Source: a phage
Strand: one strand, 5' to 3'
Sequence record: PZ296772.1
Length of the DNA stretch: 64,000 bases
The notes below the pieces were generated by a model, which had not been told where the DNA came from, did no database searches, and saw only the letters and a list, made by a program, of their open reading frames with translations. Within the stretch, counting starts at the first letter, position 1, and each line of letters opens with the position of its first letter. Shown in pieces: positions 10,815-55,468 of this stretch. A program made the position numbers and the translations under genes.

Positions 10815-10843
10815 TGTACAACCAAGGATGGTTGGAGTATAAT
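10815..10843 (+). promoter_or_regulatory. promoter with CAACCA-N4-TGGTTG palindrome (family member 1)
   Basis: tGTACAaccaaggatggttggagTATAAT; palindrome in the spacer. Confidence 0.5.
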
Positions 10844-10869
10844 AAATTTTTCAACATGAGGAATATAAA

Positions 10870-11829
10870 ATGGCTTTTATTACACGTAGAGAACTTATCA
10901 AAGAATTTACCTCGAACGCATATACTCCAGGACCTAATCCTATCCGTATGCCTGTAAAGACTCCTGAAGAGATTGAGGAAATCTGTTCATATTATGGGAT
11001 TAATTCTCGTATGTTTACTCAATTTGAATGCGTTACTAACACACCCGTTAAAGAGTTCATTAAAAATGGTGAGTTCAGCCGTTTATTAGCCAAACAGAAA
11101 CTTCGTAATTTTTGTATCGGCGGCTGCGGACAATATTTTGCTAAACAGTTCCGAAATAACCTTAACAATCTGATGGCCATTGCTTCTCGTATTCGTCCTC
11201 AAGCAATTAACATGAAACATTTGAAATATACTTACGATAAGTTAGAAATCATGGTTATCAGTGAGAATGAGTTCACTCTTACATATAAACCTAAGAATGA
11301 TAACGTTGCTCGTGTATTCCACCAAGCGCTAGAAGTGTTAGGCGATAATATCCATGAGATTAAAGCAATTTATTCTCGTGAGCTTAATATTATCGACCCT
11401 ATCAAGAATAAGGGCCATATCGCTATCCAGGCTCGTGTATCTATTGGTAAAAAGGTTCCTGCGCCATGGTGGCACAAAGACTCTGAATACTATCAAAATC
11501 TTAAAAAGGAAAATGCATTGTTTGAAGGCAATATTACAGCAACACCAGTCGGTAATGCAGAGGTTCTAGGCGCATATTCTCCAGCACAATCTGGTATGTT
11601 TAAAGGTTTGCCAAATGTGTGCAAACTGTCGGCAGTAAAACTAAATGTTTCTAATGACCTTCTTCCGGCAGAAGATTATCATTACAACCAAATCAAGGCT
11701 ACTGTAGACCAACTGTCCGTTGAACTTGACAAAGCACAAGCTAAGCTTCGTGATGCTCAAAGTGTTGTAACGAATCTCCAGTTGCAGTATTCTAAACTTT
11801 TTAATGCAATGAATGCATTAAAATCATAA
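10870..11829 (+). CDS. hypothetical protein with C-terminal coiled-coil
   Basis: 319 aa; C-terminal LDKAQAKLRDAQSVVTNLQLQYSKL. Confidence 0.5.
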   Translation: MAFITRRELIKEFTSNAYTPGPNPIRMPVKTPEEIEEICSYYGINSRMFTQFECVTNTPVKEFIKNGEFSRLLAKQKLRNFCIGGCGQYFAKQFRNNLNNLMAIASRIRPQAINMKHLKYTYDKLEIMVISENEFTLTYKPKNDNVARVFHQALEVLGDNIHEIKAIYSRELNIIDPIKNKGHIAIQARVSIGKKVPAPWWHKDSEYYQNLKKENALFEGNITATPVGNAEVLGAYSPAQSGMFKGLPNVCKLSAVKLNVSNDLLPAEDYHYNQIKATVDQLSVELDKAQAKLRDAQSVVTNLQLQYSKLFNAMNALKS

Positions 11830-11833
11830 AACG

Positions 11834-11863
11834 GTTTACAACCAAGGATGGTTGGAATATAAT
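11834..11863 (+). promoter_or_regulatory. promoter with CAACCA-N4-TGGTTG palindrome (family member 2)
   Basis: GTTTACaaccaaggatggttggaaTATAAT. Confidence 0.5.
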
Positions 11864-11891
11864 GAATCTATCTTAACGAGAGGAAAATATT

Positions 11892-12842
11892 ATGACACGT
11901 TCACATTACATTGAATACTTTGCCGGGCTTATCGCTAACGTTCATGCCCAGCGCGCTTCTGGTGCACTAGGATTTGATGTTCCACACCGAGATGTAGTAA
12001 GTGGTATTCTTCGTGATTTTGGTACATACACAGGTCAAGAAAATCATATCTGTAAAGATACTCAAAATGCATATTCTCATTCATTAGGGACACTGCTTCA
12101 ATGGTTCAAACGTTCTCGTTTATTATCTTCTACTGTAGCTCGTGATAACATCAAAAACTTTATGAAGCCGAGCTTTATTAAATCTGTGACATCTAAAACC
12201 GATTTGGTTGAATTCACTATTGTTAATGATGTTAAAAAGACTCATTTGGCTGATTGGTTATCTACCATTCCTGAAACTAAATTTGCTGATAAATTTGCTT
12301 GTGAATTCAATAACCAAGTGAATATGCTTTTTAAACATTCTCGTAAATTATTCACGGGCGGTGATGGTCGTACAAATAAAGTTCATGTTAAAGATTGGGT
12401 TACTGCAGTATTCAAACCAACCGGTAATGGTAACGCATCATTATCAATTGATATCCAGGTTCCTTATTACTACTCACGTAATCTCGGTACCATGAAAGCT
12501 GAAGAAATTAATAAGCATAACAAAACCGTTCGTTCGTTGTCTTATAAACTTATTACATTGTTAGAGACTATGGATGTTGTTGAAACGTTCGACGAGTCCG
12601 AAGATAACGGTTCAATGTTATACAGTTCTCGCACCCGAATTAAGCTGAGGAACCCTAACGAGTATAAACTTAAGACTATTAAAGAACCTAAAGTAGAAAA
12701 AGTTGACAACTTGAGCGAAGAACGTGAGTACCTCAAATCTCGTCTGAAAGAAGTCGAAGCCCAGATTAAAGAACAGACTAAATCGTTAAAAGCTCTGAAT
12801 GCGAAAGCGGATGGTTTACGAAATGCCATTGAGGTGTTATAA
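11892..12842 (+). CDS. hypothetical protein with C-terminal coiled-coil
   Basis: 316 aa; C-terminal EEREYLKSRLKEVEAQIKEQTKSLKALNAKADGLRNAIEVL. Confidence 0.5.
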   Translation: MTRSHYIEYFAGLIANVHAQRASGALGFDVPHRDVVSGILRDFGTYTGQENHICKDTQNAYSHSLGTLLQWFKRSRLLSSTVARDNIKNFMKPSFIKSVTSKTDLVEFTIVNDVKKTHLADWLSTIPETKFADKFACEFNNQVNMLFKHSRKLFTGGDGRTNKVHVKDWVTAVFKPTGNGNASLSIDIQVPYYYSRNLGTMKAEEINKHNKTVRSLSYKLITLLETMDVVETFDESEDNGSMLYSSRTRIKLRNPNEYKLKTIKEPKVEKVDNLSEEREYLKSRLKEVEAQIKEQTKSLKALNAKADGLRNAIEVL

Positions 12843-13147
12843 TGAATCTACGTCTTCTAGAGGATATTGATATGAGCACTAATCATGGCTTAGTTAAGTT
12901 TATTGATGATAGTTCAAAGATTGAATTTGTTCAGCGAGATAAAATCCTCGGTGAAGAAGAGTTCGTTCCTCCGGCATGGAACGAAATAATGAAAATGGTT
13001 GAACGACGTGAAAATGCTGCCAAATCGGCAGCAAAACATCCATGCCCAGAATGTGGAACTATCCAGGTCCAACTGGTTAACTGGACCACTGATAACTTGA
13101 AATTGAAATGCCGTAAATGCTTCCACAAATTTGAGAGAACAATATAA
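12842..13147 (+). CDS. zinc-ribbon protein
   Basis: C-terminal CPECG...(17)...CRKC. Confidence 0.45.
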   Translation: MNLRLLEDIDMSTNHGLVKFIDDSSKIEFVQRDKILGEEEFVPPAWNEIMKMVERRENAAKSAAKHPCPECGTIQVQLVNWTTDNLKLKCRKCFHKFERTI

Positions 13148-13560
13148 TGAGATATAGCCTTCGTTGTTTTATCGCAGCTTTAGTTTTTGCCATTATTCCA
13201 TTCATTTGGAACAGCCAGAATACTTACATGGAAACTAAAGTAATTCCTGTGGAGGTAGTGGAATTAATCTCAGGCCAATCTACAGGAAAATATTCTAAAT
13301 TAGAATTTATTGCAGTCTATAAAGATGAGCAAGGACGAGTTTTTGACAGGCATGTATCACCATCGTTTTATACGCTTCTGAATAAAGGTGATACGATAGC
13401 TATAGAAATTCGTGAGATGGATATTCAGCAAAATACTCGAGATAACATCATTTGGTTCTTTGGTACAGTGCTGATGTTTTCTATCGGTATCACAGGTTTT
13501 ATTACATGTATTGTATTTGGCATTGCATATTTAATCGATGAAAGGAAAAATAATGTTTAA
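13147..13560 (+). CDS. membrane protein
   Basis: N-terminal and C-terminal hydrophobic segments. Confidence 0.45.
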   Translation: MRYSLRCFIAALVFAIIPFIWNSQNTYMETKVIPVEVVELISGQSTGKYSKLEFIAVYKDEQGRVFDRHVSPSFYTLLNKGDTIAIEIREMDIQQNTRDNIIWFFGTVLMFSIGITGFITCIVFGIAYLIDERKNNV

Positions 13561-13816
13561 AGTGTACGGGTATGACTCTACTATTCATAAATGCATTTAT
13601 TGTGATAATGCGAAACGATTGCTGACTGTTAAGAAACAGCCATTCGAATTCATTAATGTTATGCCAGAAAAAGGTGTGTTCGATGATGAGAAAATTGCTG
13701 AGCTTCTGGTTAAGCTTGGACGTGAATCACAAGTCGGATTGACTATGCCACAGATATTTGCTCCTGATGGAAGTCATATTGGTGGATTTGACCAACTGCG
13801 AGAATATTTTAAATGA
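13553..13816 (+). CDS. nrdC: glutaredoxin/thioredoxin NrdC
   Basis: Start moved to ATG after AAAGGA; 87 aa; MFKVYGYDSTIHKCIYCDNAKRLL with CxxC; matches recalled T4 NrdC. Confidence 0.8.
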   Translation: MFKVYGYDSTIHKCIYCDNAKRLLTVKKQPFEFINVMPEKGVFDDEKIAELLVKLGRESQVGLTMPQIFAPDGSHIGGFDQLREYFK

Positions 13817-14109
13817 GTATTGATTTAACTTTCCCGGGCTCTTATGACCAGGGTAAATTAGAAGCTTTGTTATATCAAGAAATGTGTTCTCGTGCTAAGA
13901 ACGATATCCAATATGCTATCGATAATCCATGGGGTGAATTTCGTATATTAATGGGTAATCGAATCATAGGTGTTCAATGGCGATTCGTTGGTCTTGAACC
14001 TGAAGACTACGAAGAAAACGAGCACGGTGACTGGATTCCTGTTGGTGAATATCACTGGGAATACGGTGGTCCTGATTTCGAAGTTTCCTGTGCCTGGGTA
14101 GAACAATAA
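13813..14109 (+). CDS. hypothetical protein
   Basis: 98-aa ORF with coupled start. Confidence 0.4.
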   Translation: MSIDLTFPGSYDQGKLEALLYQEMCSRAKNDIQYAIDNPWGEFRILMGNRIIGVQWRFVGLEPEDYEENEHGDWIPVGEYHWEYGGPDFEVSCAWVEQ

Positions 14110-14127
14110 ACTGCGAGAATATTTTAA

Positions 14128-14484
14128 ATGACATATTCATTAAATCTTAAAGATTTCCAAGATGCATACGAAGTTTGTGTATCAGAGCTTGGTCCTGAAT
14201 CTCCATCTATTATTGAAGTTTTAAATGTGCTCCCTTCATCATTAGCGTATGAAGCCAAATCATGGGGATGGAATGATACTATTGTTCGTGATGACTTGTA
14301 TGTCCTGATGAATGACATGATGGTTAAAAAGGCAGAACCGGTTGCACCAATGGTTACCATTACCGTTGAAGAATATAATCGCCTGCAAGCCATTGAAGAG
14401 CTTCTGTGGAACATTGAATGTGACCTGCCGTCAGGGCTAGAATCCTGGATTGATTATGAAGAGCTCAATAAACTCCGGGGTTAA
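14128..14484 (+). CDS. hypothetical acidic protein
   Basis: 118-aa ORF. Confidence 0.4.
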   Translation: MTYSLNLKDFQDAYEVCVSELGPESPSIIEVLNVLPSSLAYEAKSWGWNDTIVRDDLYVLMNDMMVKKAEPVAPMVTITVEEYNRLQAIEELLWNIECDLPSGLESWIDYEELNKLRG

Positions 14485-14533
14485 ACCGTGGTATTCTGCT
14501 CGATGGGAGACTGTCGAGCCAGACGTCGAAACG

Positions 14534-14563
14534 GTTTACAACGACGAAGAACCATGTTATGAT
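14534..14563 (+). promoter_or_regulatory. early promoter-like
   Basis: GTTTAC, 18 nt, TATGAT; cgtcg/cgacg palindrome around the -35. Confidence 0.4.
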
Positions 14564-14612
14564 GAACCTTCAATAAATGAATTAATTGATATGGAAATGG
14601 GAAGAGATTATT

Positions 14613-14783
14613 ATGCAAGTTAAATTATTGTACCGTTTATTAAAAAACGGCAAGCATGATTGGTATTTGCTTATTAAAACCGATCCGAATTTTTTCTCTG
14701 GACAACCATTTACAGTTCGTCCTACTAAACGTCAGCTTCGCAAAGCTAAACGTTCTCATCGTAACTTTTATAGAGAATATTGA
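14613..14783 (+). CDS. small basic protein with VRPTKRQ tail
   Basis: Start at internal ATG after GGGAAGAG; C-terminal FTVRPTKRQLRKAKR shared with 44045..44257. Confidence 0.35.
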   Translation: MQVKLLYRLLKNGKHDWYLLIKTDPNFFSGQPFTVRPTKRQLRKAKRSHRNFYREY

Positions 14784-14784
14784 T

Positions 14785-15198
14785 ATGAATATTTCTGAAA
14801 CTCGCGGTAAATGGTTCAAGATTGTTAAAGAAGACGAAGAACTACAAGACAAGTTTCCTGAATTAAAGAAAGGAACAATCCTCAAGGTAATTGGTACTAC
14901 TACCGAAGATGGTTATGGCGACCATGGCATTATCGAAGTGATGTTGAACACAGGTGAGAAACTTTGCATCTATGACCGTGATACTTCTCTTTGGTGCTTC
15001 TGGGAATCCCATTCAATAGATGAACTCGAAGAAATTGACCAAGTAGTTTGTGATGGTGGACTTGGCGAATTCGAAGGTGAACGTATTTCTTATGCTTTAG
15101 CTAAATTAGCTGGTCAAGAAAATAATGACGGTTATGAAGGTAATCTGATGCAAGCCGCAGCGGAATACATTGAATATTTAGAAAGACGTTTAAGTTAA
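14785..15198 (+). CDS. hypothetical acidic protein
   Basis: Start moved to internal ATG; 137 aa. Confidence 0.45.
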   Translation: MNISETRGKWFKIVKEDEELQDKFPELKKGTILKVIGTTTEDGYGDHGIIEVMLNTGEKLCIYDRDTSLWCFWESHSIDELEEIDQVVCDGGLGEFEGERISYALAKLAGQENNDGYEGNLMQAAAEYIEYLERRLS

Positions 15199-15203
15199 TA
15201 AAT

Positions 15204-15230
15204 ACCCTTATCTATTTAAGGTAAGGGTTT
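15204..15230 (+). terminator. hairpin immediately upstream of gene 49 (terminator or RBS-occluding structure)
   Basis: accctta / taagggt stem with 11-nt loop, ending 4 nt before the ATG. Confidence 0.35.
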
Positions 15231-15233
15231 ATC

Positions 15234-15707
15234 ATGTTATTATCAGGCGCAAAATATAAAGAAGAAAAACAAAAATTTTATGATGCACAGAATGGTAAGT
15301 GTCCTATTTGCCACCGTGAATTAGACCCTGATGTTCAAGGTAACCATCTTGACCACGACCATGAATTAAACGGGCCAAAAGCTGGTAAGGTTCGTGGTTT
15401 ACTATGTAACCTGTGCAATGCAGCAGAAGGTCAAATGAAGCATAAGTTCAACCGTTCTGGTCTTAAAGGTCAAAACGTTGATTACCTCGAATGGCTTGAA
15501 GCTCTTCTTGCTTATTTGAAACAAGATTATTCTGATAATAATATCCATCCTAATTTTGTTCCAGACAAAACTAAAGAGTTCTCAAGACTAGGTAAAGAGG
15601 AAATGATGACTGAGATGCTTCAAAGAGGATTTGAATATAATGAATCTGATACTAAAACACAATTAATAGCTTCATTCAAAAAGCAGCTTAGAAAGAGTTT
15701 AAAATGA
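15234..15707 (+). CDS. 49: endonuclease VII (Holliday junction resolvase)
   Basis: 157 aa; zinc motif CPIC...CNLCN and HLDHDHELNGPKAGKVRGLLC; near-identical to recalled T4 gp49. Confidence 0.9.
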   Translation: MLLSGAKYKEEKQKFYDAQNGKCPICHRELDPDVQGNHLDHDHELNGPKAGKVRGLLCNLCNAAEGQMKHKFNRSGLKGQNVDYLEWLEALLAYLKQDYSDNNIHPNFVPDKTKEFSRLGKEEMMTEMLQRGFEYNESDTKTQLIASFKKQLRKSLK

Positions 15708-16241
15708 CGATTGAAAAAGAAATTGAAGGACTAATTCATAAAACTAATAAAGACCTTTTAAACGAGAATGCTAATAAAGATTCTCGTGTTTTTCCAACTC
15801 AACGGGACCTTATGGCTGGTATTGTGTCTAAACACATTGCCAAAAATATGGTCCCGTCTTTTATTATGAAAGCGCATGAAAGCGGAATTATCCATTTCCA
15901 CGATATTGATTATTCCCCTGCTCTTCCATTTACTAATTGCTGTTTAGTAGATTTAAAAGGAATGCTTGAGAACGGATTTAAGCTCGGTAATGCACAGATT
16001 GAAACTCCTAAATCAATCGGCGTTGCTACTGCAATTATGGCGCAAATTACTGCACAGGTTGCTTCCCACCAATATGGCGGAACGACTTTTGCGAATGTAG
16101 ATAAAGTACTTTCTCCTTATGTTAAACGCACCTATGCAAAACATATTGAGGATGCAGAAAAATGGCAAATCGCTGATGCGTTGAATTATGCTCAATCTAA
16201 AACAGAAAAAGATGTATATGACGCGTTTCAGGCGTATGAGT
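15704..16241 (+). CDS. nrdD: anaerobic ribonucleoside-triphosphate reductase NrdD, exon 1
   Basis: ORF interrupted by an in-frame stop 2 codons past the predicted 5' splice site; P1 pairing defines the exon end. Confidence 0.8.
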
Positions 16242-16452
16242 TAATTTAATTCAGGCTCATGTAAAACCGGTCTAAACGGGGAACCTCTCTAGTAGACAAT
16301 CCCGTGCTAAATGTTCTTTTGAACTAAATGCCTAACGACTAACCGTGATGAATGTAGCGGTGTAGAATAGAAGCTAATGCTATTCGAAACGGCCGGCATC
16401 GAAAGATGAAGATATAGTCTAATCTGCATGGCGACATGCAGCAGTCATCTTG

Positions 16453-16460
16453 TATAAATA
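16453..16460 (+). promoter_or_regulatory. T4-type late promoter TATAAATA inside intron
   Basis: Exact TATAAATA about 30 nt upstream of the endonuclease ATG. Confidence 0.45.
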
Positions 16461-16489
16461 AGATTATCTTATGAATACGAGGTGAAACA

Positions 16490-17260
16490 ATGAAATGGAT
16501 AAAAAGACGTTGTACTAAAATAAAAGATAAAGACGCATTTACATACTTAGTTAAGTTTTCTAATGGCGACATTTATATCGGTTATAAAAAATTTAGAACA
16601 ATTAAAAACAAGCCCACAAACTGGAAAACTTACACAACGTCATCTAAGTATATAAATGAACGCTTAAAAACTGATACACCTACTAAATGGATAATTTTAA
16701 AAACATTTGATAGTTATAAAGATGCATTAAAACATGAAGAAGAGGTCATACGTAAATATTTTTATAGCAAAAAATGTTTAAATAAATCCATAGGCGGTAA
16801 AAAGTTTTATAAGCATCCGGATACTGAAGAACATATTCAAAAATTAAGAGATGCTCATAAGGGTAAAGTGTTATCCGAATCTCATAAAAACAATATAAAA
16901 TCTTCTGTGGCTGAATATTATGCTAAAAACAGAAGATCTAAGGAACATGTGCAAAATAATATCAATAGTCGAAAAAGTAAAAAACAAGTATCGATAAAGC
17001 TTAAAAATAAAACTTTTAGAAGTTTTAAAAAAGCAGCGGAATATTTAAATTGCACTGAAAGTGAAGTCGAAACTCATCCTCTTGTTTTGAGTATTAAGAC
17101 TACTATTCATAAAGTTCCTGAATATGTGGTTGTTGACGGTATTAAGTATACGTCTTATATAGAAGCAGCTAAAGCGCTAAATTTTCATCCTAGCACTATA
17201 AAAGAACGTTGCATATCTATGGACTATCCAAATTTTGTTGTTTCATATAAACGGGCATGA
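16490..17260 (+). CDS. intron-encoded GIY-YIG homing endonuclease (I-TevII-like)
   Basis: 256 aa in the 3' part of the intron; GIY-YIG-like TYLV..DIYIGY; NUMOD3-like basic repeats (HKGKVLSESHKNNIKSS); C-terminal HTH-like IKYTSYIEAAKALNFHPSTIKERC. Confidence 0.75.
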   Translation: MKWIKRRCTKIKDKDAFTYLVKFSNGDIYIGYKKFRTIKNKPTNWKTYTTSSKYINERLKTDTPTKWIILKTFDSYKDALKHEEEVIRKYFYSKKCLNKSIGGKKFYKHPDTEEHIQKLRDAHKGKVLSESHKNNIKSSVAEYYAKNRRSKEHVQNNINSRKSKKQVSIKLKNKTFRSFKKAAEYLNCTESEVETHPLVLSIKTTIHKVPEYVVVDGIKYTSYIEAAKALNFHPSTIKERCISMDYPNFVVSYKRA

Positions 17261-17274
17261 ATTTGCGACTCATG

Positions 17275-19364: not shown

Positions 19365-19366
19365 TT

Positions 19367-21211: not shown

Positions 21212-21250
21212 TGTACAACGATAGGAAGACATGTTATTATCTTCCTATCG
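21212..21250 (+). promoter_or_regulatory. promoter inside inverted repeat
   Basis: TGTACA ... TATTAT flanked by perfect 10-bp inverted repeat cgataggaag/cttcctatcg. Confidence 0.5.
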
Positions 21251-23773: not shown

Positions 23774-23947
23774 ATGACGAACATCCCGACTTCTGAAAAT
23801 TTCGATAAAATCCGTAAAGGCAAAGCAGAAAGAATGAGACGTTTTAAAGAGTCTTATGATAAAGCTAAAGCCGAAGGAACTATTACGTACAAGCCCATTC
23901 GATTTAAAAGTTCAAATGAGCCTCTGTACGGTGTACTATGTGGATAG
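23774..23947 (+). CDS. hypothetical small protein (below ORF-track threshold)
   Basis: 57-aa ORF MTNIPTSENFDKIRKGKAER... with GAGAGG RBS, ending at a strong terminator. Confidence 0.3.
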   Translation: MTNIPTSENFDKIRKGKAERMRRFKESYDKAKAEGTITYKPIRFKSSNEPLYGVLCG

Positions 23948-23970
23948 GAACTCTTCGGAGTTCCTTTTTT
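23947..23970 (+). terminator. rho-independent terminator
   Basis: ggaactc-TTCG-gagttcc followed by T6. Confidence 0.65.
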
Positions 23971-25516: not shown

Positions 25517-27201
25517 AATCATTTAAATTAAATCGTGTTCGTTATCAAAACATCATGTCGGTAGGTGGGAATCCTATTGATATCCAATTAGATAAAGTCC
25601 AAAAGACATTAATCACCGGTAAAAACGGCGGTGGTAAATCTACGATGTTAGAAGCCATTACTTTCGGACTTTTCGGTAAACCATTTCGTGATGTTAAGAA
25701 AGGACAAATCATTAACAGCACGAATAAGAAAGAGCTCTTAGTTGAGCTTTGGATGGAATTCGATGATAAAAAATACTTCATTAAACGCGGCCAAAAGCCC
25801 AATATTTTCGAAATCTCCGTTGACGGTGTTCGTCTTGATGAATCTGCCAGCAGTCGGGACTTCCAAGAAGAATTTGAACGTAGCATCGGAATGTCATACG
25901 CGTCTTTTAAACAAATCGTTGTGCTTGGGACGGCAGGGTATACCCCTTTCATGGCTCTTAGCACCCCTGCTCGTAGAAAACTTGTCGAAGACCTTTTAGA
26001 AGTCGGCACACTCGCTGAAATGGATAAAATCAATAAGTCTCAAGTTCGAGAACTTAATTCCCAGGGACAAGTTCTAGATGCCAAGAAAGATGGTATTATC
26101 CAACAAATTAAGATTTATAACGAGAATATTGAACGTCAAAAGAAATTATCTGGTGATAATGTAGCGCGTCTACAGAATATGTATGACGATCTAGCCAAAG
26201 AAGCTCGTTCATTAAAAGCAGAAATCGAAGAAGCTAATGAGCGACTACTTAATATCGTTCTTGATGAAGACCCTACTGAGGCATTCAACAAGATCGGACA
26301 AGAAGCATTCTTGATTAAATCTAAAATTGACTCATATAACAAAGTTATTAAGATGTATCATGATGGCGGTACATGTCCTACTTGTGCATCACAGTTGCAC
26401 CAGGGTGATCCTATTGTCTCTAAGATTACCGATAAGCTTCACGAATGTAATCACTCATTCGAGCAACTTACATGTCACAGAGATAATCTGAGTGTCCTAG
26501 TGGACGAATATAGAGCTAATGTTAAGACTAAACAGGACCTTGCATCTGATATTCGTACCAAGAAACAAGCAATGATTGCCACTATTGATAAAGCTAAGAA
26601 AGTTAAAGCTGCAATAGAGCAAGCCTCAGCAGAATTTATCGACCATGCTGATGAGATAGCTTTGCTTCAAAAAGAACTTGATAAAATCATTAAAACAAAA
26701 TCAGACATCGTTCTTGAAAAATACCATCGTGGTATTATCACAGATATGTTAAAAGATTCTGGTATTAAAGGTGCTATCATTAAAAAATATGTGCCTTTGT
26801 TCAACAAGCAGATTAACCATTATCTTAAAATCATGGAAGCTGATTACGTGTTTTCTATTGACGAAGAATTCAATGAATCTATAAAATCACGTGGTCGTGA
26901 AGACTTTAGTTATGCTTCATTTAGTCAAGGTGAAAAGGCCCGTATCGATATCGCACTGTTGTTTACATGGCGAGATATTGCTGAAAAGGTCTCTGGTGTT
27001 AAAATCAACACTCTGATTCTTGATGAGGTTTTTGATGGTGCTGTCGATTCTGAGGCTGTTAAGGCTATAGATACCATCCTTGGTAGTTTACAAAATACTA
27101 ATGTGTTCATTATCTCTCATCGAGATCATGACCCTCAACGTTATGGACAACATCTTCAAATGAGCAAAGTTGGACGATTTACTGTAATGACTGTTTCATA
27201 A
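25513..27201 (+). CDS. 46: recombination endonuclease subunit gp46 (Rad50/SbcC-like ATPase)
   Basis: 562 aa; Walker A GKNGGGKST; central coiled coil with zinc hook CPTC; signature FSQGEKAR; Walker B LILDEVF. Confidence 0.9.
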   Translation: MKSFKLNRVRYQNIMSVGGNPIDIQLDKVQKTLITGKNGGGKSTMLEAITFGLFGKPFRDVKKGQIINSTNKKELLVELWMEFDDKKYFIKRGQKPNIFEISVDGVRLDESASSRDFQEEFERSIGMSYASFKQIVVLGTAGYTPFMALSTPARRKLVEDLLEVGTLAEMDKINKSQVRELNSQGQVLDAKKDGIIQQIKIYNENIERQKKLSGDNVARLQNMYDDLAKEARSLKAEIEEANERLLNIVLDEDPTEAFNKIGQEAFLIKSKIDSYNKVIKMYHDGGTCPTCASQLHQGDPIVSKITDKLHECNHSFEQLTCHRDNLSVLVDEYRANVKTKQDLASDIRTKKQAMIATIDKAKKVKAAIEQASAEFIDHADEIALLQKELDKIIKTKSDIVLEKYHRGIITDMLKDSGIKGAIIKKYVPLFNKQINHYLKIMEADYVFSIDEEFNESIKSRGREDFSYASFSQGEKARIDIALLFTWRDIAEKVSGVKINTLILDEVFDGAVDSEAVKAIDTILGSLQNTNVFIISHRDHDPQRYGQHLQMSKVGRFTVMTVS

Positions 27202-45000: not shown

Positions 45001-45035
45001 GTTTACATTATAGATGGACTATAGTATAGTAGTCC
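45001..45035 (+). promoter_or_regulatory. early promoter-like cassette inside inverted repeat
   Basis: GTTTAC, 18 nt, TATAGT; ggacta/tagtcc inverted repeat. Confidence 0.45.
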
Positions 45036-45059
45036 TATCAAATCAACTAAGGAGTTAAA

Positions 45060-46691: not shown

Positions 46692-46697
46692 TATGAT

Positions 46698-48557: not shown

Positions 48558-48563
48558 TTAAGT

Positions 48564-48571: not shown

Positions 48572-48602
48572 CACCTGTAATTAAACAACAAAGGAGTTAA
48601 TT

Positions 48603-48839
48603 ATGGGTGGTTACGTTAATATCAAAACCTTTACGCATCCTGCCGGTGAAGGCAAAGAAGTTAAAGGTATGGAAGTTTCTGTACCGTTTGAGATTTATTC
48701 AAACGAACATCGGATTGCAGATTCTCATTACCAAATCTTTCCATCAGAAAAGGCAGCATATTCTACTGTAGTTTCTGATGCGGCTGATTGGAAAACTAAG
48801 AATGCCGCAATGTTTACCCCTACACCAGTAAGTGGTTAA
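48603..48839 (+). CDS. soc: small outer capsid protein Soc
   Basis: 78 aa; GYVNIKTF and HYQ.FPSEKAAYSTV match recalled T4 Soc. Confidence 0.8.
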   Translation: MGGYVNIKTFTHPAGEGKEVKGMEVSVPFEIYSNEHRIADSHYQIFPSEKAAYSTVVSDAADWKTKNAAMFTPTPVSG

Positions 48840-48846
48840 ATAATTT

Positions 48847-48872
48847 AAGGAATCCTTCGGGATTCCTTTTTT
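48847..48872 (+). terminator. rho-independent terminator
   Basis: aaggaatcc-TTCG-ggattcctt followed by T6. Confidence 0.7.
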
Positions 48873-48881
48873 GTTTCTACA

Positions 48882-48911
48882 GTTTACAACCACTAAAAAC
48901 TGTGTTAAGAT
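48882..48911 (+). promoter_or_regulatory. early promoter-like
   Basis: GTTTAC, 18 nt, TAAGAT. Confidence 0.45.
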
Positions 48912-48939
48912 ATTTTTACTTACTCAAGAGGAGAACAAT

Positions 48940-49167
48940 ATGTTAAATCGTTGGATTAAACCTAATAACACATTAGGTGCTTTGATTGCTCAAGAAGTTT
49001 CATTGAAATACGGCCTTGGATATTATGATGATGTAGTCGTACACTCGTTCATGATGGATGGTGAAAACGTCAAATTTAATGCCGAAATCCGTTGGGATGA
49101 CGGTGGTGTTCGTTTTGTTCGAGGAACAATTAATGCTTACGATGCTGAAGAAGTTGTTTGCTGTTAA
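48940..49167 (+). CDS. hypothetical protein
   Basis: Start moved to ATG after AAGAGGAG; 75 aa. Confidence 0.4.
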   Translation: MLNRWIKPNNTLGALIAQEVSLKYGLGYYDDVVVHSFMMDGENVKFNAEIRWDDGGVRFVRGTINAYDAEEVVCC

Positions 49168-49350
49168 ACCAGGCGAAGGTATGATGCCGATTCCTGATAC
49201 ACACGAAAAAAGTTGGGAATACATTGGTGATGGAATGATGGAAGAAGTTGTTCGTCCAAAAACAAAACAGGTTAATGCTTCAAGCTCTTCCGATTATAAT
49301 CATTCATACGTATCGTCTTGGCCTGGTGATTCTGGGTCAAGTTATTCTGA

Positions 49351-49557
49351 TTGTGGTTCAAGCTCAGGGAGCTGCGAATGAACAGAATAGTAAAATGGTT
49401 TAAAAGCTTGAATGATGGTGTCGGTCCGGAAGATTGGCTGGATGTTCTTGAAGAGAATATGGCTAAAGAATTCCAGAAACACGAAGAGAAGCTCGTCGAA
49501 GATGAAGGCGAACGTATTGTAAAACTTTATATGGGTGAACCATCGAGGAAATTATAA
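49351..49557 (+). CDS. hypothetical protein
   Basis: 68 aa. Confidence 0.35.
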   Translation: MWFKLRELRMNRIVKWFKSLNDGVGPEDWLDVLEENMAKEFQKHEEKLVEDEGERIVKLYMGEPSRKL

Positions 49558-50021
49558 TGGATGCTATGTTATTTAAAATGTATTTGCTTGAAGCCAAGTC
49601 GTTTAAACATATACCAGTAGAAGATAAGACTCCACTAGAAATAGCTATTCTCATTAACAAAAGTCTAAATAATCCGCAATATATCGTAGAAGAATTCTGC
49701 AAATTGCAGATTCCTAAAGGTTACAAAATTCGTGTAGAGCGAGTTGGAGCTATTACTCATTCTAAAAATTCTCCGTTTAGTCTTGAAGAAGGCATAAAGG
49801 ACTTAGGTTATGAATCTACGGAAAATGCAGTTTATGTGAATCCTGAAAAGCGTTTAGACTTGTTTGAAAAGCGAGACCATAAGTATTTTGCCAAAAAATA
49901 CTTTATTACATCATTAGCAGATTTAATCCATTTGCAACGAGCTATTTGGAAATTTTTTAAGACAAAAGGTGTAGTACTAGAAACATTCTCTGAACCTGCT
50001 AGTTTTTATCTCGGTGAATAA
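49557..50021 (+). CDS. hypothetical protein
   Basis: 154 aa, coupled start. Confidence 0.45.
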   Translation: MDAMLFKMYLLEAKSFKHIPVEDKTPLEIAILINKSLNNPQYIVEEFCKLQIPKGYKIRVERVGAITHSKNSPFSLEEGIKDLGYESTENAVYVNPEKRLDLFEKRDHKYFAKKYFITSLADLIHLQRAIWKFFKTKGVVLETFSEPASFYLGE

Positions 50022-50022
50022 T

Positions 50023-50202
50023 ATGGACTTGATGAGTATGTTTGATGAGCCTGAAGTTGAGGCTCCTAAAGTGCATCGTAGTGAACTTGTTGATGAACTA
50101 GATAGTATTATACAACGACACGGCTTTAGTTTACCTGTTGAAGCCCTGAAAGACCTTGCCTCTTATTATGACGACCCTCCACCATGGAGTCCTTGGAAAT
50201 GA
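50023..50202 (+). CDS. hypothetical acidic protein
   Basis: Start moved to internal ATG after GGTGA. Confidence 0.35.
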   Translation: MDLMSMFDEPEVEAPKVHRSELVDELDSIIQRHGFSLPVEALKDLASYYDDPPPWSPWK

Positions 50203-50362
50203 AAGAGAAATTTAAAGAGAAATTCTTACTAGAAATCAAGGAAAAAGACTTTGAGACATGGTATCGAATGGTGAAAGGGTTGACATTGCTTTTTAAAGCA
50301 TCCTTATTCATGTTAGAACAACCTGGTCCTGATGGACCTTTAGTAGGAAAGCTTAAAAAGTA

Positions 50363-50391
50363 GTTTACATTCCCTCCTCTCGTGTTATGAT
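50363..50391 (+). promoter_or_regulatory. early promoter-like
   Basis: GTTTAC, 17 nt, TATGAT. Confidence 0.45.
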
Positions 50392-50418
50392 AGGCTTATC
50401 TTTAAATGGAGGTCTATC

Positions 50419-51000
50419 ATGACATGTCAATCTGAACTTCAAGAACATGAATACCTAACAAATCTGATTGATAGCAAATTCACCCGCCAAGAACAAAACA
50501 TTCTCTGGGCCTGCACCGATTCTAAGGAAGACCCGGATTTCCACTATGAATTAGACCATCTTGTTCGTAAGCATATGACTTCTACAGTGCCAGTAGAACT
50601 CTACCGTGGTGTAACTCCAGAAGAAGTAGAACGTCTTTCCCTTCTTTCTGTGGGATGCCATTGGTCTCCTGGACGAGTAACATCGTTCACAACTGATTTC
50701 AGTACAGCTCGTCAATTCTCCGGGAGATGGGAATATCAGACGTACACTATTCTTAGTCTCAGGAATGCTCCATTCATTTTTGATTACTACCAAAACATGG
50801 TTAACATTGTACTTGCCGGAAAGAACCCTAAGCATGTTATGGAAGAAACGCGTGTTGACGTCCTAGATATGATTGAATCTGAACAAGAATACATGGTCTC
50901 AGGTATCTCTAGATTTGAGATTGTGGAAATTGAAGAGTTAGAGTATGACCCTTTGCCTCGAGTATACAAAATCATTCACTTAAAGATGTTGAATTTTTAG
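50419..51000 (+). CDS. modA: ADP-ribosyltransferase, ModA/ModB type (first of pair)
   Basis: R-S-E motifs: LYRGV, SFTTDF, EQEYMVSG; paralogous to next ORF; symbol by recalled T4 order. Confidence 0.55.
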   Translation: MTCQSELQEHEYLTNLIDSKFTRQEQNILWACTDSKEDPDFHYELDHLVRKHMTSTVPVELYRGVTPEEVERLSLLSVGCHWSPGRVTSFTTDFSTARQFSGRWEYQTYTILSLRNAPFIFDYYQNMVNIVLAGKNPKHVMEETRVDVLDMIESEQEYMVSGISRFEIVEIEELEYDPLPRVYKIIHLKMLNF

Positions 51001-51030
51001 TGTACAAACTCTACCTACGATGATACTATA
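51001..51030 (+). promoter_or_regulatory. early promoter-like
   Basis: TGTACA, 18 nt, TACTAT. Confidence 0.4.
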
Positions 51031-51057
51031 CTTTTATCAACCAGAGGAGAAACCTAA

Positions 51058-51666
51058 ATGTTTATGCCGTATAACGAGTGTGAAATTGAAGAAATGGTTC
51101 GTCGTGCTCAAAACCCCGAATATCAAGATGTATTGCAGTACGAAATTGATAGTCAATTCAGCGACATTGAACAAAGTGTACTGTGGCAGTGTATGGAAAA
51201 CAAGCCAGACTGTATTCAACAGGAGTTAAGTTCAATCGTTCGTAGAAATTGGACGTCTTCTGTTCCTGAGACAATGTATCGTGGAATCTCTAAGAAAACT
51301 ATGGCCACACTCGATGATAAAGGCATTGGTAGTATTATTAAATTTGACAGAGTAATGAGCTTTAGTCCAGTGTTTGGTGTAGCACGTAACTTCGCTTCAT
51401 ATAATTTTTATGGAACATTTAATATGTTCTGCGTCAAAGATGCACCATTTGCTTTCAACTTCCGTGAACATATGCTTAATATGATTCTGGCTGCACCATC
51501 TTGTGAGTTCAATGGAGCTTTCCCTGAAGCGACAAGACGGTCTAATGCTAGACTTATATCTGACGAATGTGAATTTATGCTCCCTATAGGGACTACACTG
51601 CGTGTAGATTCTATTATTCAAGATGGACGTTATACAATCTGGAATCTGTCTATTGTTGGTTACTGA
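51058..51666 (+). CDS. modB: ADP-ribosyltransferase, ModA/ModB type (second of pair)
   Basis: R-S-E motifs: MYRGI, SFSPVF, ECEFMLPIG; symbol by recalled T4 order. Confidence 0.55.
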   Translation: MFMPYNECEIEEMVRRAQNPEYQDVLQYEIDSQFSDIEQSVLWQCMENKPDCIQQELSSIVRRNWTSSVPETMYRGISKKTMATLDDKGIGSIIKFDRVMSFSPVFGVARNFASYNFYGTFNMFCVKDAPFAFNFREHMLNMILAAPSCEFNGAFPEATRRSNARLISDECEFMLPIGTTLRVDSIIQDGRYTIWNLSIVGY

Positions 51667-51740
51667 CTGGATTGGAATAACCGGATGGAACTCAGAACCA
51701 TTATAACACATAAAAAATTAAAGCATTTTACGAAAAAAGT

Positions 51741-51769
51741 GTGTACACTACCTGAGGGCATGATATTAT
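51741..51769 (+). promoter_or_regulatory. early promoter-like
   Basis: GTGTAC, 17 nt, TATTAT. Confidence 0.4.
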
Positions 51770-51818
51770 AGACCTATCAGCTAAATGACCTAACGTCCGT
51801 AAGACAGAGGAAAATATT

Positions 51819-52565
51819 ATGTTATCAAATAATAAAATTAACAAAATCAATCGTCGTCTTGACCACACCAGAGCTTCTGCGAAGAGACGCTCTAAGGATT
51901 TTAACTTAGATTTTAATTACCTTAAAAACATTCTTGATCAAAAGGTCTGCGCTTACTCAGGTGAATCTTTCAATAACTCTGTTGAAGGTGAGAAATTATC
52001 CTTAGAACGTTTTAATAATGATATAGGCTACATTAAAGGTAATGTTATCCCAGTTAAGAAAAAATATAACACGGCTCGTTCTGATTTAACATTAGAAGAA
52101 CTTATTGAGAAACGTGATGCCATTGCAAGACGTATTGCTAATCCTTCTGCCCGTAAAGTAGAGAAACTTAATCTTGACGAGAAGAAATGGGCCCAAATTA
52201 AAAAGGTTTATGGTACTATTTTAAAAATCCGAGCAAAACGTGAAAACCGTGTTAAGCATATGGCGAACATGATGAAAAATCAACCTTTATCTAACGAATC
52301 TAAACTTAGAATTGTTGCTTTGAAAGCACGCATTAATGGCTCACATCAAGCAGAAGGCCATGAACTTACTAAACTCAACGTTCTTCTTAAAGGCTCTGAC
52401 TGGAAAACTAAAACTAAATTAACTGACGCCGAATCGCTTTTCGATACATATGATAAAGTTATCCAAGGTCTGCAACGTTTTGAAAAGATCGGTTTCATTG
52501 GTAAATTAAAATTGAAACGTGGCCTACCACTTAGCGCATCATTATTCCAACTGATTAAAGGTTAA
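51819..52565 (+). CDS. hypothetical protein (position of T4 srd)
   Basis: 248 aa between the mod pair and dda; name by synteny only. Confidence 0.4.
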   Translation: MLSNNKINKINRRLDHTRASAKRRSKDFNLDFNYLKNILDQKVCAYSGESFNNSVEGEKLSLERFNNDIGYIKGNVIPVKKKYNTARSDLTLEELIEKRDAIARRIANPSARKVEKLNLDEKKWAQIKKVYGTILKIRAKRENRVKHMANMMKNQPLSNESKLRIVALKARINGSHQAEGHELTKLNVLLKGSDWKTKTKLTDAESLFDTYDKVIQGLQRFEKIGFIGKLKLKRGLPLSASLFQLIKG

Positions 52566-52567
52566 TT

Positions 52568-52879
52568 ATGGTTTATGTATATGCAATAGTTTATCGAGAT
52601 ATGGAAGGATTTACTGTCCCGGTTCCACTTGATGAGCATCGTCCTGCAGTATTTTTTAGAAAGGATATTGCAGATAAAGTTTTCGATACTTTGAAAACAC
52701 AGTATAAAACAGATTTAAAAATGGGAGTTCTAAGAATGGTCGAAACTCCGCGTAAGTTCTGGTTTAATAAGCTTGAAATGAAACACGTTAAACTAGATGC
52801 GGAGACGCAAAAATTGTATCAACGAATCCTGGACACAGGCCGTATTGTTAGTATTCCAATTGCAGGGACTTTACGATGA
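52568..52879 (+). CDS. hypothetical protein
   Basis: 103 aa immediately upstream of dda. Confidence 0.45.
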   Translation: MVYVYAIVYRDMEGFTVPVPLDEHRPAVFFRKDIADKVFDTLKTQYKTDLKMGVLRMVETPRKFWFNKLEMKHVKLDAETQKLYQRILDTGRIVSIPIAGTLR

Positions 52880-54189
52880 CATTTGATGATTTGACTGAAG
52901 GCCAGAAAAACGCCTTCAACGTTGTTATGGAAGCTATTAAAGAAAAGAAACATCATGTAACTATTAATGGACCTGCTGGTACAGGTAAAACAACCCTTAC
53001 TAGATTCATCGTTGAAGCCCTTATTTCTTCTGGAGAATCAGGTATTATTTTAGCAGCCCCTACACATGCTGCTAAAAAGGTTCTAAGCAAACTTGCGGGT
53101 CAAGAAGCATCGACTATTCATAGCATTCTTAAAATCAACCCAACTACATACGAAGAAAACGTATTATTTGAACAGAAAAAGGTTCCAGACTTAGCCTTGT
53201 GTCGTGTACTGTTATTTGATGAAGCGTCAATGTGCGACCGTTCTCTGTTTAAAATAATGTTAGCTAGTATCCCTAAATGGTGTACAGTAATTGGAATCGG
53301 CGACCGATGCCAGATTCGTCCGGTAGACCCAGGCGAATCAACTGCGTATCTAAGTCCTTTCTTCACTCACAAAGACTTCGTGCAATGCAACCTTACAGAA
53401 GTTAAACGTAGCAATGCACCAATTATTGATGTTGCGACTGATATTCGTAACGGCAAATGGATTTACGATAAAGTAGTTGATGGGCACGGTGTTCACGGAT
53501 ATACAGACCTTAAATCGTATATGATGAACTATTTTAACGTCGTTAAAACTCCTGAAGACCTTTTCGAAAATCGAATGATGGCATTCACAAATAAGTCGGT
53601 GGACAAGTTAAATTCAATTATTCGCCGAAAACTTCTTGAAACAGAAAAACCATTTATTAAAGACGAAGTCATTGTTCTACAAGAGCCGTTTACTAAGACA
53701 TATAAGCTAGATGGTAAAAATATGACCGAAATGCTTTTCAATAACGGTCAATTCGTTCGTATTCGAGATGCTGTAGAAACGTCTACATTCGTTAAAGCAC
53801 GTGGTGTTTCAGGCGAATATATGATACGATACTGGAATCTTACAGTAGAAACGTATGGGGATGATGAAGAATACATCCGCGAAGATATAAAGGTTATTTC
53901 TTCTGAAGAAGAGCTTTATAAATTCAATTTGTTTTTGGCTAAGACCGCAGAAACATACAAATTTTGGAATAAAGGTGGTAAAGCTCCATGGAGCGAATTC
54001 TGGGATGCTAAACGTATGTTCACTAAGGTGAAGGCACTACCAGTATCAACCTTCCATAAGGCCCAGGGTATGTCTGTTGACACGGCCTTTGTTTATACAC
54101 CGTGTATCCATTACGCCGATTCAGAATTAGCTAAACAGTTATTGTATGTCGGCACAACTCGTGGTCGGTTTGACGTCCATTTTATTTGA
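52876..54189 (+). CDS. dda: Dda SF1 DNA helicase
   Basis: 437 aa; motif I GPAGTGKTT, motif II LLFDEASM, C-terminal VGTTRG; matches recalled T4 Dda. Confidence 0.85.
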   Translation: MTFDDLTEGQKNAFNVVMEAIKEKKHHVTINGPAGTGKTTLTRFIVEALISSGESGIILAAPTHAAKKVLSKLAGQEASTIHSILKINPTTYEENVLFEQKKVPDLALCRVLLFDEASMCDRSLFKIMLASIPKWCTVIGIGDRCQIRPVDPGESTAYLSPFFTHKDFVQCNLTEVKRSNAPIIDVATDIRNGKWIYDKVVDGHGVHGYTDLKSYMMNYFNVVKTPEDLFENRMMAFTNKSVDKLNSIIRRKLLETEKPFIKDEVIVLQEPFTKTYKLDGKNMTEMLFNNGQFVRIRDAVETSTFVKARGVSGEYMIRYWNLTVETYGDDEEYIREDIKVISSEEELYKFNLFLAKTAETYKFWNKGGKAPWSEFWDAKRMFTKVKALPVSTFHKAQGMSVDTAFVYTPCIHYADSELAKQLLYVGTTRGRFDVHFI

Positions 54190-54198
54190 GAGAAAATT

Positions 54199-54876
54199 AT
54201 GAGCACTGATGTTATTATAGATTTTGAAACATTCGGCAATACATCAAAAGCGGCTGTTATTGACCTTGCGGTTATTGCATATAATTCCGACCCTGAAGTT
54301 GTTGAATCATTTGAAGAACTTGTTCAACGAGGTAAGCGAATTAAATTTAATTTAGCTTCTCAGAAAGGGAAGCGAGTTTTCGCTAAATCCACTATGAAAT
54401 GGTGGAAAGAACAATCGGCTGAAGCACGTAAAAACTTGGCTCCGTCTGAAGACGATGTCACTACGCTTGAAGGCATTAAAATCTTTTTAGACTATTGCCG
54501 AGCTAATAAAGTTGACCAATGGAAATCACAGATGTGGTGTCGTGGTATGAGCTTTGACTTCCCGATATTGGTCGATTTGATTCGTGACCTCTATCGTGAT
54601 GAAGGTGTTCCTGAACCAGAGATTGATACTGATAAATTAGAACCGGTTAAATTCTGGGCTCAACGTGATATTCGTACGGCAATCGAAGCTTACTCGTTGA
54701 CACGAGGATTAAGTATGTGTCCATTACCGATGGGTACGCTAAAAGGATTCGTTGCCCATGATAGTATTCATGATTGTGCTAAAGATATTTTGATGTTAAA
54801 ATATGCTCAGCGTTATGCGCTTGGTCTTGAAGATGTCCCTGAGAATCCTGACCCGTTAAGTGTAAAACAGCGATAA
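54199..54876 (+). CDS. dexA: exonuclease A (DnaQ-like)
   Basis: 225 aa; Exo I motif IDFETFG; T4 dexA position. Confidence 0.65.
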   Translation: MSTDVIIDFETFGNTSKAAVIDLAVIAYNSDPEVVESFEELVQRGKRIKFNLASQKGKRVFAKSTMKWWKEQSAEARKNLAPSEDDVTTLEGIKIFLDYCRANKVDQWKSQMWCRGMSFDFPILVDLIRDLYRDEGVPEPEIDTDKLEPVKFWAQRDIRTAIEAYSLTRGLSMCPLPMGTLKGFVAHDSIHDCAKDILMLKYAQRYALGLEDVPENPDPLSVKQR

Positions 54877-54882
54877 AATCAG

Positions 54883-54911
54883 TTTACAACCAAGGACGGT
54901 TGGAGTATAAT
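54883..54911 (+). promoter_or_regulatory. promoter with CAACCA-N4-CGGTTG palindrome (family member 3)
   Basis: GTTTACaaccaaggacggttggagTATAAT. Confidence 0.5.
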
Positions 54912-54941
54912 CTTTCTATCTTAACCAAACGGGAAACAATT

Positions 54942-55436
54942 ATGAATATCAATACTACGTCTACTTACATCCTGAAAGACGAAAAACAAATCAACTGGTA
55001 CGGTGCTTCAGTGCGAGCTTATGAAAAGTTTTGTGAAATTTTAGGTGCCACTCAAGGTAATAGTTTCACTATTGTTAACTTCATTAAACAAGTTGAAGGC
55101 CCTTGGTTATTCTTAGAAATTAAAAATTCATACGGTACAATTTCTACTACTGCCATCCCAAGCACCGACTTTGAACTGTTGATTGAAGAAGCACCTGTTA
55201 AAGATGGTCTCCACTTTGATATGGATATCGTTTGTATGTACGGTACTCTGATTAAGCCTATTGAGCCTACTGATTTATTGTGTAAATATGTTTCAATTCG
55301 ACGCCCATTCGATGGTCCAGTAAATGGATGGGTAACTGACCAGTGGATTGAAGATGGGGTTGAACTTCTGAACGTTGTTCATGCCGGTGATTTTAGTGTG
55401 GTTCCACGTAGTGCAGTAGTTAATATTCTAAATTAA
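54942..55436 (+). CDS. paralog-family protein 1 (shared C-terminal domain)
   Basis: Start moved to ATG; C-terminal TDQWIEDGVELLNVVHAGDFSVVP shared with 55498 and 55963. Confidence 0.5.
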   Translation: MNINTTSTYILKDEKQINWYGASVRAYEKFCEILGATQGNSFTIVNFIKQVEGPWLFLEIKNSYGTISTTAIPSTDFELLIEEAPVKDGLHFDMDIVCMYGTLIKPIEPTDLLCKYVSIRRPFDGPVNGWVTDQWIEDGVELLNVVHAGDFSVVPRSAVVNILN

Positions 55437-55438
55437 TG

Positions 55439-55468
55439 TTGTACATCCAAGGATGGATGGAGTATAAT
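55439..55468 (+). promoter_or_regulatory. promoter with degenerate CATCCA-N4-TGGATG palindrome (family member 4)
   Basis: tGTACAtccaaggatggatggagTATAAT. Confidence 0.5.

Follow-up and report, generated by a model that had tools for sequence, protein, structure and literature searches.

What role does a palindrome play between the -35 and -10 hexamers of four early promoters of a single phage, when the two loci at which these promoters stand are about 44 kb apart? The question is raised by a stretch of 64,000 nucleotides (nt) from sequence record PZ296772.1, hereafter the window, which comes from a Mosigvirus, an RB69-like T4-type member of the Tevenvirinae, and in which all genes lie on the + strand. 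A sequence-only reading of this DNA had proposed that the palindrome is an operator for a dimeric DNA-binding regulator. Comparison with relatives leads us to favor another answer, to which we give a probability of about three in four, namely that the four sites are cassettes of the promoter-early stem-loop (PeSL) type, in which a promoter of the early type and a stem-loop precede an accessory gene and in which recombination between copies removes or inserts that gene.

Four early promoters with a palindromic spacer

By inspection of the window, the four sites are T4-early-type promoters on the + strand, and they lie where the sequence-only reading had placed them. Site 1 (10815..10843) begins immediately 3' of the nrdC.6 stop codon and is the early promoter of nrdC.5; its block reads TGTACAaccaaggatggttggagTATAAT, in which, as in the other blocks, capitals mark the -35 and -10 hexamers along with those bases that differ from the shared CAACCA/TGGTTG arms. 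It has -35 TGTACA at 10815-10820, a spacer of 17 base pairs (bp), and -10 TATAAT at 10838-10843. Site 2 (11835..11863; TTTACAaccaaggatggttggaaTATAAT), with -35 TTTACA and -10 TATAAT at 11858-11863, is the early promoter of nrdC.3; site 3 (54883..54911; TTTACAaccaaggaCggttggagTATAAT), with -35 TTTACA and -10 TATAAT at 54906-54911, is that of motB.1; and site 4 (55440..55468; TGTACAtccaaggatggAtggagTATAAT), with -35 TGTACA and -10 TATAAT at 55463-55468, is that of motB. The start codons that follow are ATGs at 10870, 11892, 54942, and 55498, each preceded by a Shine-Dalgarno (SD) sequence. All four sites agree with the consensus at 10-11 of 12 positions with the 17-bp spacer, TATAAT being perfect in each, and they form the distinct sub-family that had been supposed, since over 30 bases they agree at 25-28, the mean for the other early promoters in the window being 14.5. 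Alignment of the surroundings confines this likeness to the promoter, the flanks being unrelated. In the 30 nt upstream, the adenine-thymine (AT) content is 73, 70, 63, and 77% for sites 1-4, compared with 63% for the window, so that site 3 stands at the average, with no enrichment.

The palindrome does lie in the spacer of all four promoters, as had been claimed, but it is perfect only in the first two. Sites 1 and 2 carry CAACCA-AGGA-TGGTTG in a 6-4-6 arrangement (10819..10834 and 11839..11854); in site 3 the innermost pair is broken by a T>C change (CAACCA-AGGA-CGGTTG, 54887..54902), and site 4 has the symmetric A>T / T>A variant CATCCA-AGGA-TGGATG (55444..55459). The predicted stem comprises 6 bp with a 4-nt loop in sites 1, 2, and 4 and 5 bp in site 3; about 35 nt separate the end of the hairpin from the start codon downstream, and the SD sequence lies outside it. 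The hairpin is thermodynamically marginal, with DNA folding energies of -3.3 to -6.0 kcal/mol, and its stem falls far short of the G/C stems of RB49, which were described as "stable". Searching Rfam at the gathering score returned no matches across the whole window.

A search for further copies had been proposed by the sequence-only reading. With up to three mismatches, the 16-mer CAACCAAGGATGGTTG has five matches in the window, compared with 0.41 expected, and none of 100 shuffles reaches five; a 45-mer built on the family matches 215 phage records, one of which (match H77, a GenBank record) annotates the family site as "promoter". This 45-mer is found at 2-4 places per genome in the matches listed, and therefore the whole promoter family appears to be confined to the window. 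The fifth 16-mer match (27071-27086, - strand), a 5-bp version of the palindrome (TACCA-AGGA-TGGTA) inside the coding region of gene 46, has no promoter context and is probably due to chance.

Directly 5' of TATAAT at 10838-10843 and of the other three -10 regions stands GGAG (GGAA in site 2), in place of the extended -10 motif TGn (tgtTATAAT) that is present in most of the window's other early promoters. Because of this replacement, the four promoters may differ from the rest of the early set in strength or factor dependence.

Conservation of pairing among related phages

Relatives were taken from INPHARED records, as IMG/VR, when queried with the proteins, yielded no more than 3-4 loci for each gene. 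The four sites are found at orthologous positions in Mosigvirus relatives, where sites 1-3 hardly vary and the site of motB has the CATCCA/TGGATG variant in every case. In other genera, AGGA-centred palindromes with different arms are found at promoters of the same nrdC cluster. T4 (Tequatrovirus) has AGCCA-AGGA-TGGCT at the nrdC.3 promoter, CCACA-AGGA-TGTGG at that of nrdC.4, and TATACCA-AGGA-TGGTATA at that of nrdC.7, and the nrdC.4 promoter carries TACCACA-AGGA-TGTGGTA in AR1 (Tequatrovirus), CTTCCA-AGGA-TGGAGG in VR20 (Gaprivervirus), and, in IME08 (Dhakavirus), a CATCCA-AGGA-TGGATG identical to the palindrome of site 4. Each variant arm (CAACCA, CATCCA, CTTCCA, AGCCA, CCACA, TATACCA, ACCC) is matched by its complement.

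This observation was quantified on 14 distinct AGGA-centred palindromes, which were taken from promoters of Mosig-, Tequatro-, Dhaka-, and Gaprivervirus. Pairing is present in 89.3% of cells versus 64.7% in shuffles, with 0 of 500 shuffles reaching the observed value; the covariation score is 0.566 versus 0.12, and slid controls are 14-43% paired. Both sides have changed in four of the six pairs, and one pair occurs as A-U, C-G, U-A, and G-C. The supposition that the palindrome is not accidental is thus upheld by pairing conserved across genera. The CA-AGGA-TG centre, on the other hand, is nearly invariant across the related promoters and is better conserved than the arms, while its place is not fixed: counted from the -10, AGGA stands at -25..-22 in this family, -21..-18 in T4 nrdC.4, -19..-16 in T4 nrdC.7, and -26..-23 in T4 nrdC.3, a shift of up to 9 bp between members.

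Compensatory changes in the arms, combined with this drifting position, would lead one to think that selection acts on the base pairing of the arms and not on the half-site sequence, which is the behavior of a hairpin and not of an operator. As to the strand, G.T wobbles occur on the sense strand only, in the outermost pair of T4 nrdC.4 (A-T there in AR1) and in the VR20 nrdC.4 stem, and because both are on that strand they would weakly favor folding of the sense strand. Overall, the covariation points to selection for pairing in small promoter hairpins and provides a testable refinement of the PeSL concept for short, weak stem-loops.

Recombination between copies

Sites 1 and 2 bracket the nrdC.5 homologue (10870..11829, + strand), a DUF7235 protein 25% identical to T4 NrdC.5, and site 2 is placed to drive the nrdC.3 homologue (11892..12842, + strand), for which no Pfam family was found. 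Sites 3 and 4 bracket the motB.1 homologue (54942..55436, + strand), which belongs to the Pfam motB family in its C-terminal part only and is 37% identical to T4 MotB.1; site 4 precedes the motB homologue (55498..55953, + strand; PF17613, Pfam motB). As direct repeats, sites 1 and 2 are 1020 bp apart and sites 3 and 4 are 557 bp apart. The gene sets named by the sequence-only reading hold as to their start codons, but less so as to kinship: its two adjacent coiled-coil genes, nrdC.5 and nrdC.3, have no detectable similarity in the window and are not detectable paralogs, and what it took for a tandem paralog cluster comes down, for motB.1 and motB, to a common stretch of 36 C-terminal residues. 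The possibility that the promoters are remnants of gene duplication was rejected, because the promoters are much more alike than the genes, which are either unrelated or far more diverged.

The exact junctions expected of recombination between the copies are found in sequenced relatives. In p000v, a Mosigvirus without nrdC.5, the nrdC.6|nrdC.3 junction is an exact chimera of sites 1 and 2, running from the site 1 upstream flank and TGTACA through the shared block into the site 2 downstream sequence. This fused form is found in one piece in 21 of the 154 records matching the junction (p000v and 20 others), and nrdC.5 is absent from them. The corresponding chimera of sites 3 and 4, with motB.1 deleted, was built hypothetically and predicted before it was searched for; it is intact in 17 records, in which motB.1 is absent and dexA adjoins motB. 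In phi25-307 and G2285 this junction runs from cagTTTACA (site 3 type) through tCCAAGGATGGATGG into the site 4 downstream sequence, so that the flank is that of site 3 and the arms are those of site 4, and the crossover falls within the four bases TACA, between the discriminating positions.

Gene order among genera is consistent with the same process. T4 has nrdC.5|nrdC.4|nrdC.3, Mosigvirus nrdC.5|nrdC.3, and Dhakavirus and Gaprivervirus nrdC.5|nrdC.4|nrdC.2, and these differences fall precisely at the promoter junctions. Exchange between the two loci is also suggested by the promoter alleles, since the motB variant of the window is that of the Dhakavirus nrdC.4 promoter, while the motB promoter of Tequatro- and Gaprivervirus differs; in T4, Aplg8, VR7, and ECML-359, motB stands behind another promoter, whose -10 is surrounded by an inverted repeat. 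In RB69 (- strand, 46502 versus 4430), the nrdC.3 promoter (site 2) shares its downstream 12 nt, ctttctatctta, with the motB.1 promoter (site 3) 42 kb away, and differs in these 12 nt from the nrdC.3 promoter of the window; the shared segment looks like a gene-conversion tract between distant copies. A -10-like remnant is seen downstream of the motB promoter in T4 (L010, - strand, about 1660-1720), where it reads gtGGAGTATAAAatc, and in Aplg8 and VR7 (L137 1415-1505 and L138 1410-1505), where it reads tGGAGAATAAA. The remnant is similar to the Mosigvirus family in its 3' half (TGGAGTATAAT), as if another promoter had been set before a decayed AGGA-type one.

These loci therefore provide a natural example of accessory-gene gain and loss in T4-type phages, with two optional genes bracketed by near-identical 30-bp promoter repeats. 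T4 nrdC.5 restored infection of cells carrying the Dsr1 defence (PMC9391042), and because the bracketed gene of the window is a distant homologue (25% identity, within one Pfam family) of this anti-Dsr1 gene, the cassettes may trade anti-defence genes and shape host range. MotB.1, together with GoF and Frd.2, is a predicted LSm-like protein, and its function is unknown (PMC12152347).

Promoter-early stem-loops and alternative explanations

Elements of this kind have been described before. PeSLs were reported in RB49 and phi1 by Arbiol et al. (2010), who proposed that the stem-loop attenuates upstream transcription; its usual place is between -35 and -10 or over the -10, recombination from one PeSL to another cuts out the flanked open reading frame (ORF) as a mini-circle, and one RB49 stem-loop cut lacZ expression as strongly as rrnB T1 (PMC2839356). 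Comeau et al. (2014) extended PeSLs to T4/PST with the promoter consensus TTTACW-N17-TAYWAT, RB69-type phages being outside their analysis (PMC4122927). This consensus fits sites 1-4, with TGTACA in sites 1 and 4, and the sites combine the features by which PeSLs are known: sigma70 boxes at about 17-bp spacing, an AT-rich lead-in, a stem-loop, an intergenic position before a small accessory gene, and recombination between copies. Within this class, the family of four belongs to the "between -35 and -10" subclass.

The window's sites resemble the RB49/phi1 PeSLs, in which, too, an AT-rich lead-in comes before a sigma70 early promoter with a stem-loop, and the SD/ATG of a small gene that is not essential comes after it; they form direct repeats around single ORFs, and recombination takes the ORF out or brings it in, with a chimeric element as the product. 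There are also differences. The -35 here is of the T-even type, TTTACA/TGTACA, whereas RB49/phi1 have TTGACA; the stem is short and weak in place of polyG/polyC, which makes terminator activity unlikely; and the conserved AGGA apex, common to several genera, is a feature of the present sites. The PeSLs of T4/PST and nt-1/KVP40 (PMC4122927) resemble them in the promoter consensus (T4/PST), in their hyperplastic regions, and in insertions and deletions between close relatives, but are built of AGNA-loop-TCNT stems just upstream of the promoter, unlike the CCA-AGGA-TGG core in the spacer seen here. The kind of element is thus already described; the novelty lies in the clear covariation about a conserved apex and in the natural chimeric junctions of RB69-type phages.

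On this basis, each cassette would comprise an AT-rich lead-in, a strong promoter for host sigma70 (T[T/G]TACA, 17 bp, TATAAT), the spacer palindrome, and then the SD sequence and start of one small accessory gene. Host RNA polymerase would fire these promoters right after infection, as the consensus matches suggest, and the palindrome would be retained because its arms must pair, as the covariation suggests. Pairing would most likely take place on the sense strand, in read-through transcripts from the co-directional upstream gene; since the hairpin lies wholly upstream of the start site, only such transcripts would contain it, and read-through RNA would gain an intercistronic hairpin, absent from promoter-initiated transcripts, that might act as a weak attenuator or as a mark for processing or stability. 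The shared block of about 30 bp would serve as a homology patch for the very active recombination system of the phage, as the natural chimeras indicate, with exchange between sites 1 and 2 removing or inserting nrdC.5, exchange between sites 3 and 4 removing or inserting motB.1, and exchange between the loci homogenizing the copies and having presumably moved promoter alleles from one locus to the other. A similar situation is known for the T4 genes e, soc, 49, and I-TevI, where the promoter also lies in hairpin-encoding DNA and the structure forms only in read-through transcripts; there, however, the promoter is a late one and the hairpin sequesters the ribosome-binding site (PMC3014915), whereas the present hairpin excludes the SD sequence.

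Several points weigh against the PeSL interpretation. As RNA, the hairpin folds with only -6.2 to -6.9 kcal/mol, at z-scores of -0.4 to -1.4; it is followed by no U-tract, and the terminator scan of the window does not list it. With so weak a fold, the role of terminator or attenuator shown for one G/C-rich RB49 stem-loop may not hold here. In T4/PST the stem-loops lie just upstream of the promoter and not inside the spacer (Comeau et al., 2014; PMC4122927). The palindromes behind the covariation are few and related to one another, and the structure was written after the sequences had been seen; symmetric changes in a palindrome can, moreover, also come from templated quasi-palindrome mutation without selection. 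Promoter activity and early timing are predicted from consensus matches. Finally, a purely structural role does not account for an apex that is better conserved than the arms.

The conserved apex invites explanations in which something reads it. It is unlikely, though it deserves consideration, that a purine-loop hairpin (AAGGA, Shine-Dalgarno-like) in read-through RNA forms, with the GGAG on its 3' side, a sequence-specific recognition site which sets messenger RNA boundaries or stability between cassettes, the candidates being RegB/S1 processing, binding of the 30S subunit, and a phage RNA-binding protein. The strength of apex conservation and the restriction of G.T wobbles to the sense strand agree with this, as does the GGAG found after the stem in most copies; in early RNAs, GGAG between genes is cleaved by RegB, with the consensus GG*AGRAYARAA (PMC3014915), and MotB.1, GoF, and Frd.2 count among the predicted LSm-like proteins (PMC12152347). 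However, GGAGUAUAAU agrees only partly with the extended RegB consensus, site 2 has GGAA and T4 nrdC.4 and nrdC.7 have no GGAG, Rfam finds nothing in the window, and such an element would have no obvious need to sit inside a promoter spacer. A bolder version, which we regard as a long shot, is that CA-AGGA-TG, kept in at least four Tevenvirinae genera while the arms covary, is a specific recognition element read in single-stranded form, be it RNA or extruded DNA; it might be recognized by a phage RNA-binding protein, by RegB/S1 or the ribosome in the role of an intercistronic insulator, or by a structure-specific nuclease that initiates cassette recombination. If true, the promoters would be dual-purpose, with an unrecognized trans-acting partner. 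A cruciform switch was set aside, 6-bp arms being in our own judgement too short for extrusion.

The operator proposed by the sequence-only reading, at which a dimeric phage or host protein would bind the duplex palindrome between -35 and -10 and switch the four promoters together, now seems improbable. MerR-type promoters have a spacer of 19-20 bp, in place of the optimal 17 bp of the four sites. Operators of this kind, for dimeric helix-turn-helix or MerR-type regulators, do share with the present sites the dyad symmetry, the length of about 16 bp, and the spacer position; the 6-4-6 dyad places half-site centres one helical turn apart at the classical repressor position, the core CCAAGGATGG is well conserved, the family has no TGn extended -10 motif, and what shuts off the early promoters of T4 is still not known (PMC2988021). 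Nevertheless, an operator has a fixed half-site sequence and position, whereas the arms here vary and covary within single genomes (AGCCA, CCACA, and TATACCA in T4; CAACCA, CATCCA, and ACCC in the window), are complementary beyond any common core, a pairing that a duplex-reading protein does not need, and move by several base pairs relative to the hexamers. Copies also number only 2-4 per genome, the orthologous motB promoters of other genera have no such palindrome, and no regulator is known. MotB, the 55498 family suggested as that regulator, is reported to bind DNA non-specifically, and its knockdown in T4 is described as having no significant effect on the transcriptome (PMC7827196). Co-regulation of the two distant gene sets is true in the trivial sense that all four are early promoters; a recombining PeSL cassette accounts better for the block they share. 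Known sites of Escherichia coli regulators (RcsAB, NarL, and FadR/PdhR-type TGGT-ACCA) do not fit, and the papers that a literature search found for the string CCAAGGATGG were all unrelated.

It is equally doubtful that the palindrome is a passenger with no function of its own in a promoter spread by recombination, its symmetry restored by template switching and its identity by gene conversion. Gene conversion and chimeras are demonstrated, the hairpin is marginal, and templated mutation in quasi-palindromes is reportedly well established in T4 from the rII work of Ripley and co-workers; pairing is nevertheless kept in four genera despite many arm sequences and shifted positions, and inverted repeats are enriched in early promoters generally, neither of which a passenger would lead one to expect. 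Last, an intrinsic terminator that stops transcription of the upstream gene just before the next promoter is very improbable and was rejected: although this role was proposed for PeSL stem-loops and one of them, in RB49, lowered lacZ as much as rrnB T1, the 6-bp stem here has three G-C pairs (about -7 kcal/mol), is followed by GAGUAUAAU / GAGTATAAT with no U-run, and is missed by a scan that finds canonical terminators elsewhere in the window. The latter, at 48847-48911, 23946-23965, and 58270-58285, have a GC-rich stem, a TTCG-type loop, and a T-run; an early-type promoter at 48883 directly follows the terminator at 48847, a terminator-then-promoter layout distinct from the spacer hairpins.

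Inverted repeats are enriched in the early promoters of the window. Of the 18 early-type promoters collected from it, 39% have a best perfect stem of 6 bp or more, versus 12% of random segments (Mann-Whitney p = 0.001), and in many of them the inverted repeats flank the -10 hexamer. The stronger inverted repeats outside the four-member family pair the spacer with the first transcribed bases and hold the -10 hexamer in the loop. Promoter hairpins at 9174-9211 (stem 8 bp, -15 kcal/mol), 21212-21250 (12 bp, -16.7 kcal/mol), 45002-45040 (6 bp, -11.1 kcal/mol), and 5304-5345 (9 bp, GGTAGGACT/AGTCCTACC) are the PeSL subclass "overlapping the -10".

A fifth, diverged relative of the palindrome is found upstream of nrdC.6 (9758..9783, + strand; cGCTTTAcccaaggacgggtTATAAT), with the palindrome ACCC-AAGGAC-GGGT at 9764-9777. 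MotA-dependent middle promoters have a TGCTTtA-like MotA box about 12 bp upstream of the -10 and no -35, and the geometry at 9758-9783 appears to suit such a promoter better than a -35/-10 early promoter: cGCTTTA is 13 nt from TATAAT in the nrdC.6 region of the window and 12 nt in IME08, VR20, and T4, with no -35. The same layout is seen at T4 nrdC.7 and at nrdC.6 of IME08 and VR20, and TATACCA-AGGA-TGGTATA runs into the -10. Neither the nrdC.6-type site nor the nrdC and motB promoters are among the entries of the T4 middle-promoter table (PMC2988021).

Beyond the T4-type phages, an IMG/VR scan for CCAAGGATGG-N0-8-TATAAT gave mostly chance matches among those listed, and no enrichment is claimed for the core outside this group. 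The IMG/VR contigs L063, L125, and L032 have no INPHARED relative and, in the stretch fetched, no T4-like proteins, and megablast gave no cultured relative for L063 and L032. In these contigs, TTGACA-N17-TATAAT promoters recur in arrays at intervals of a few hundred bases, many of them having a hairpin in the spacer or at the -10, and several of the promoters show a CA-NGGA-TG apex at -21..-18 that was not selected by the query (GTGCAgggaTGCAC, GCCAcggaTGGC). PeSL-like architecture may thus reach beyond cultured T4-type phages.

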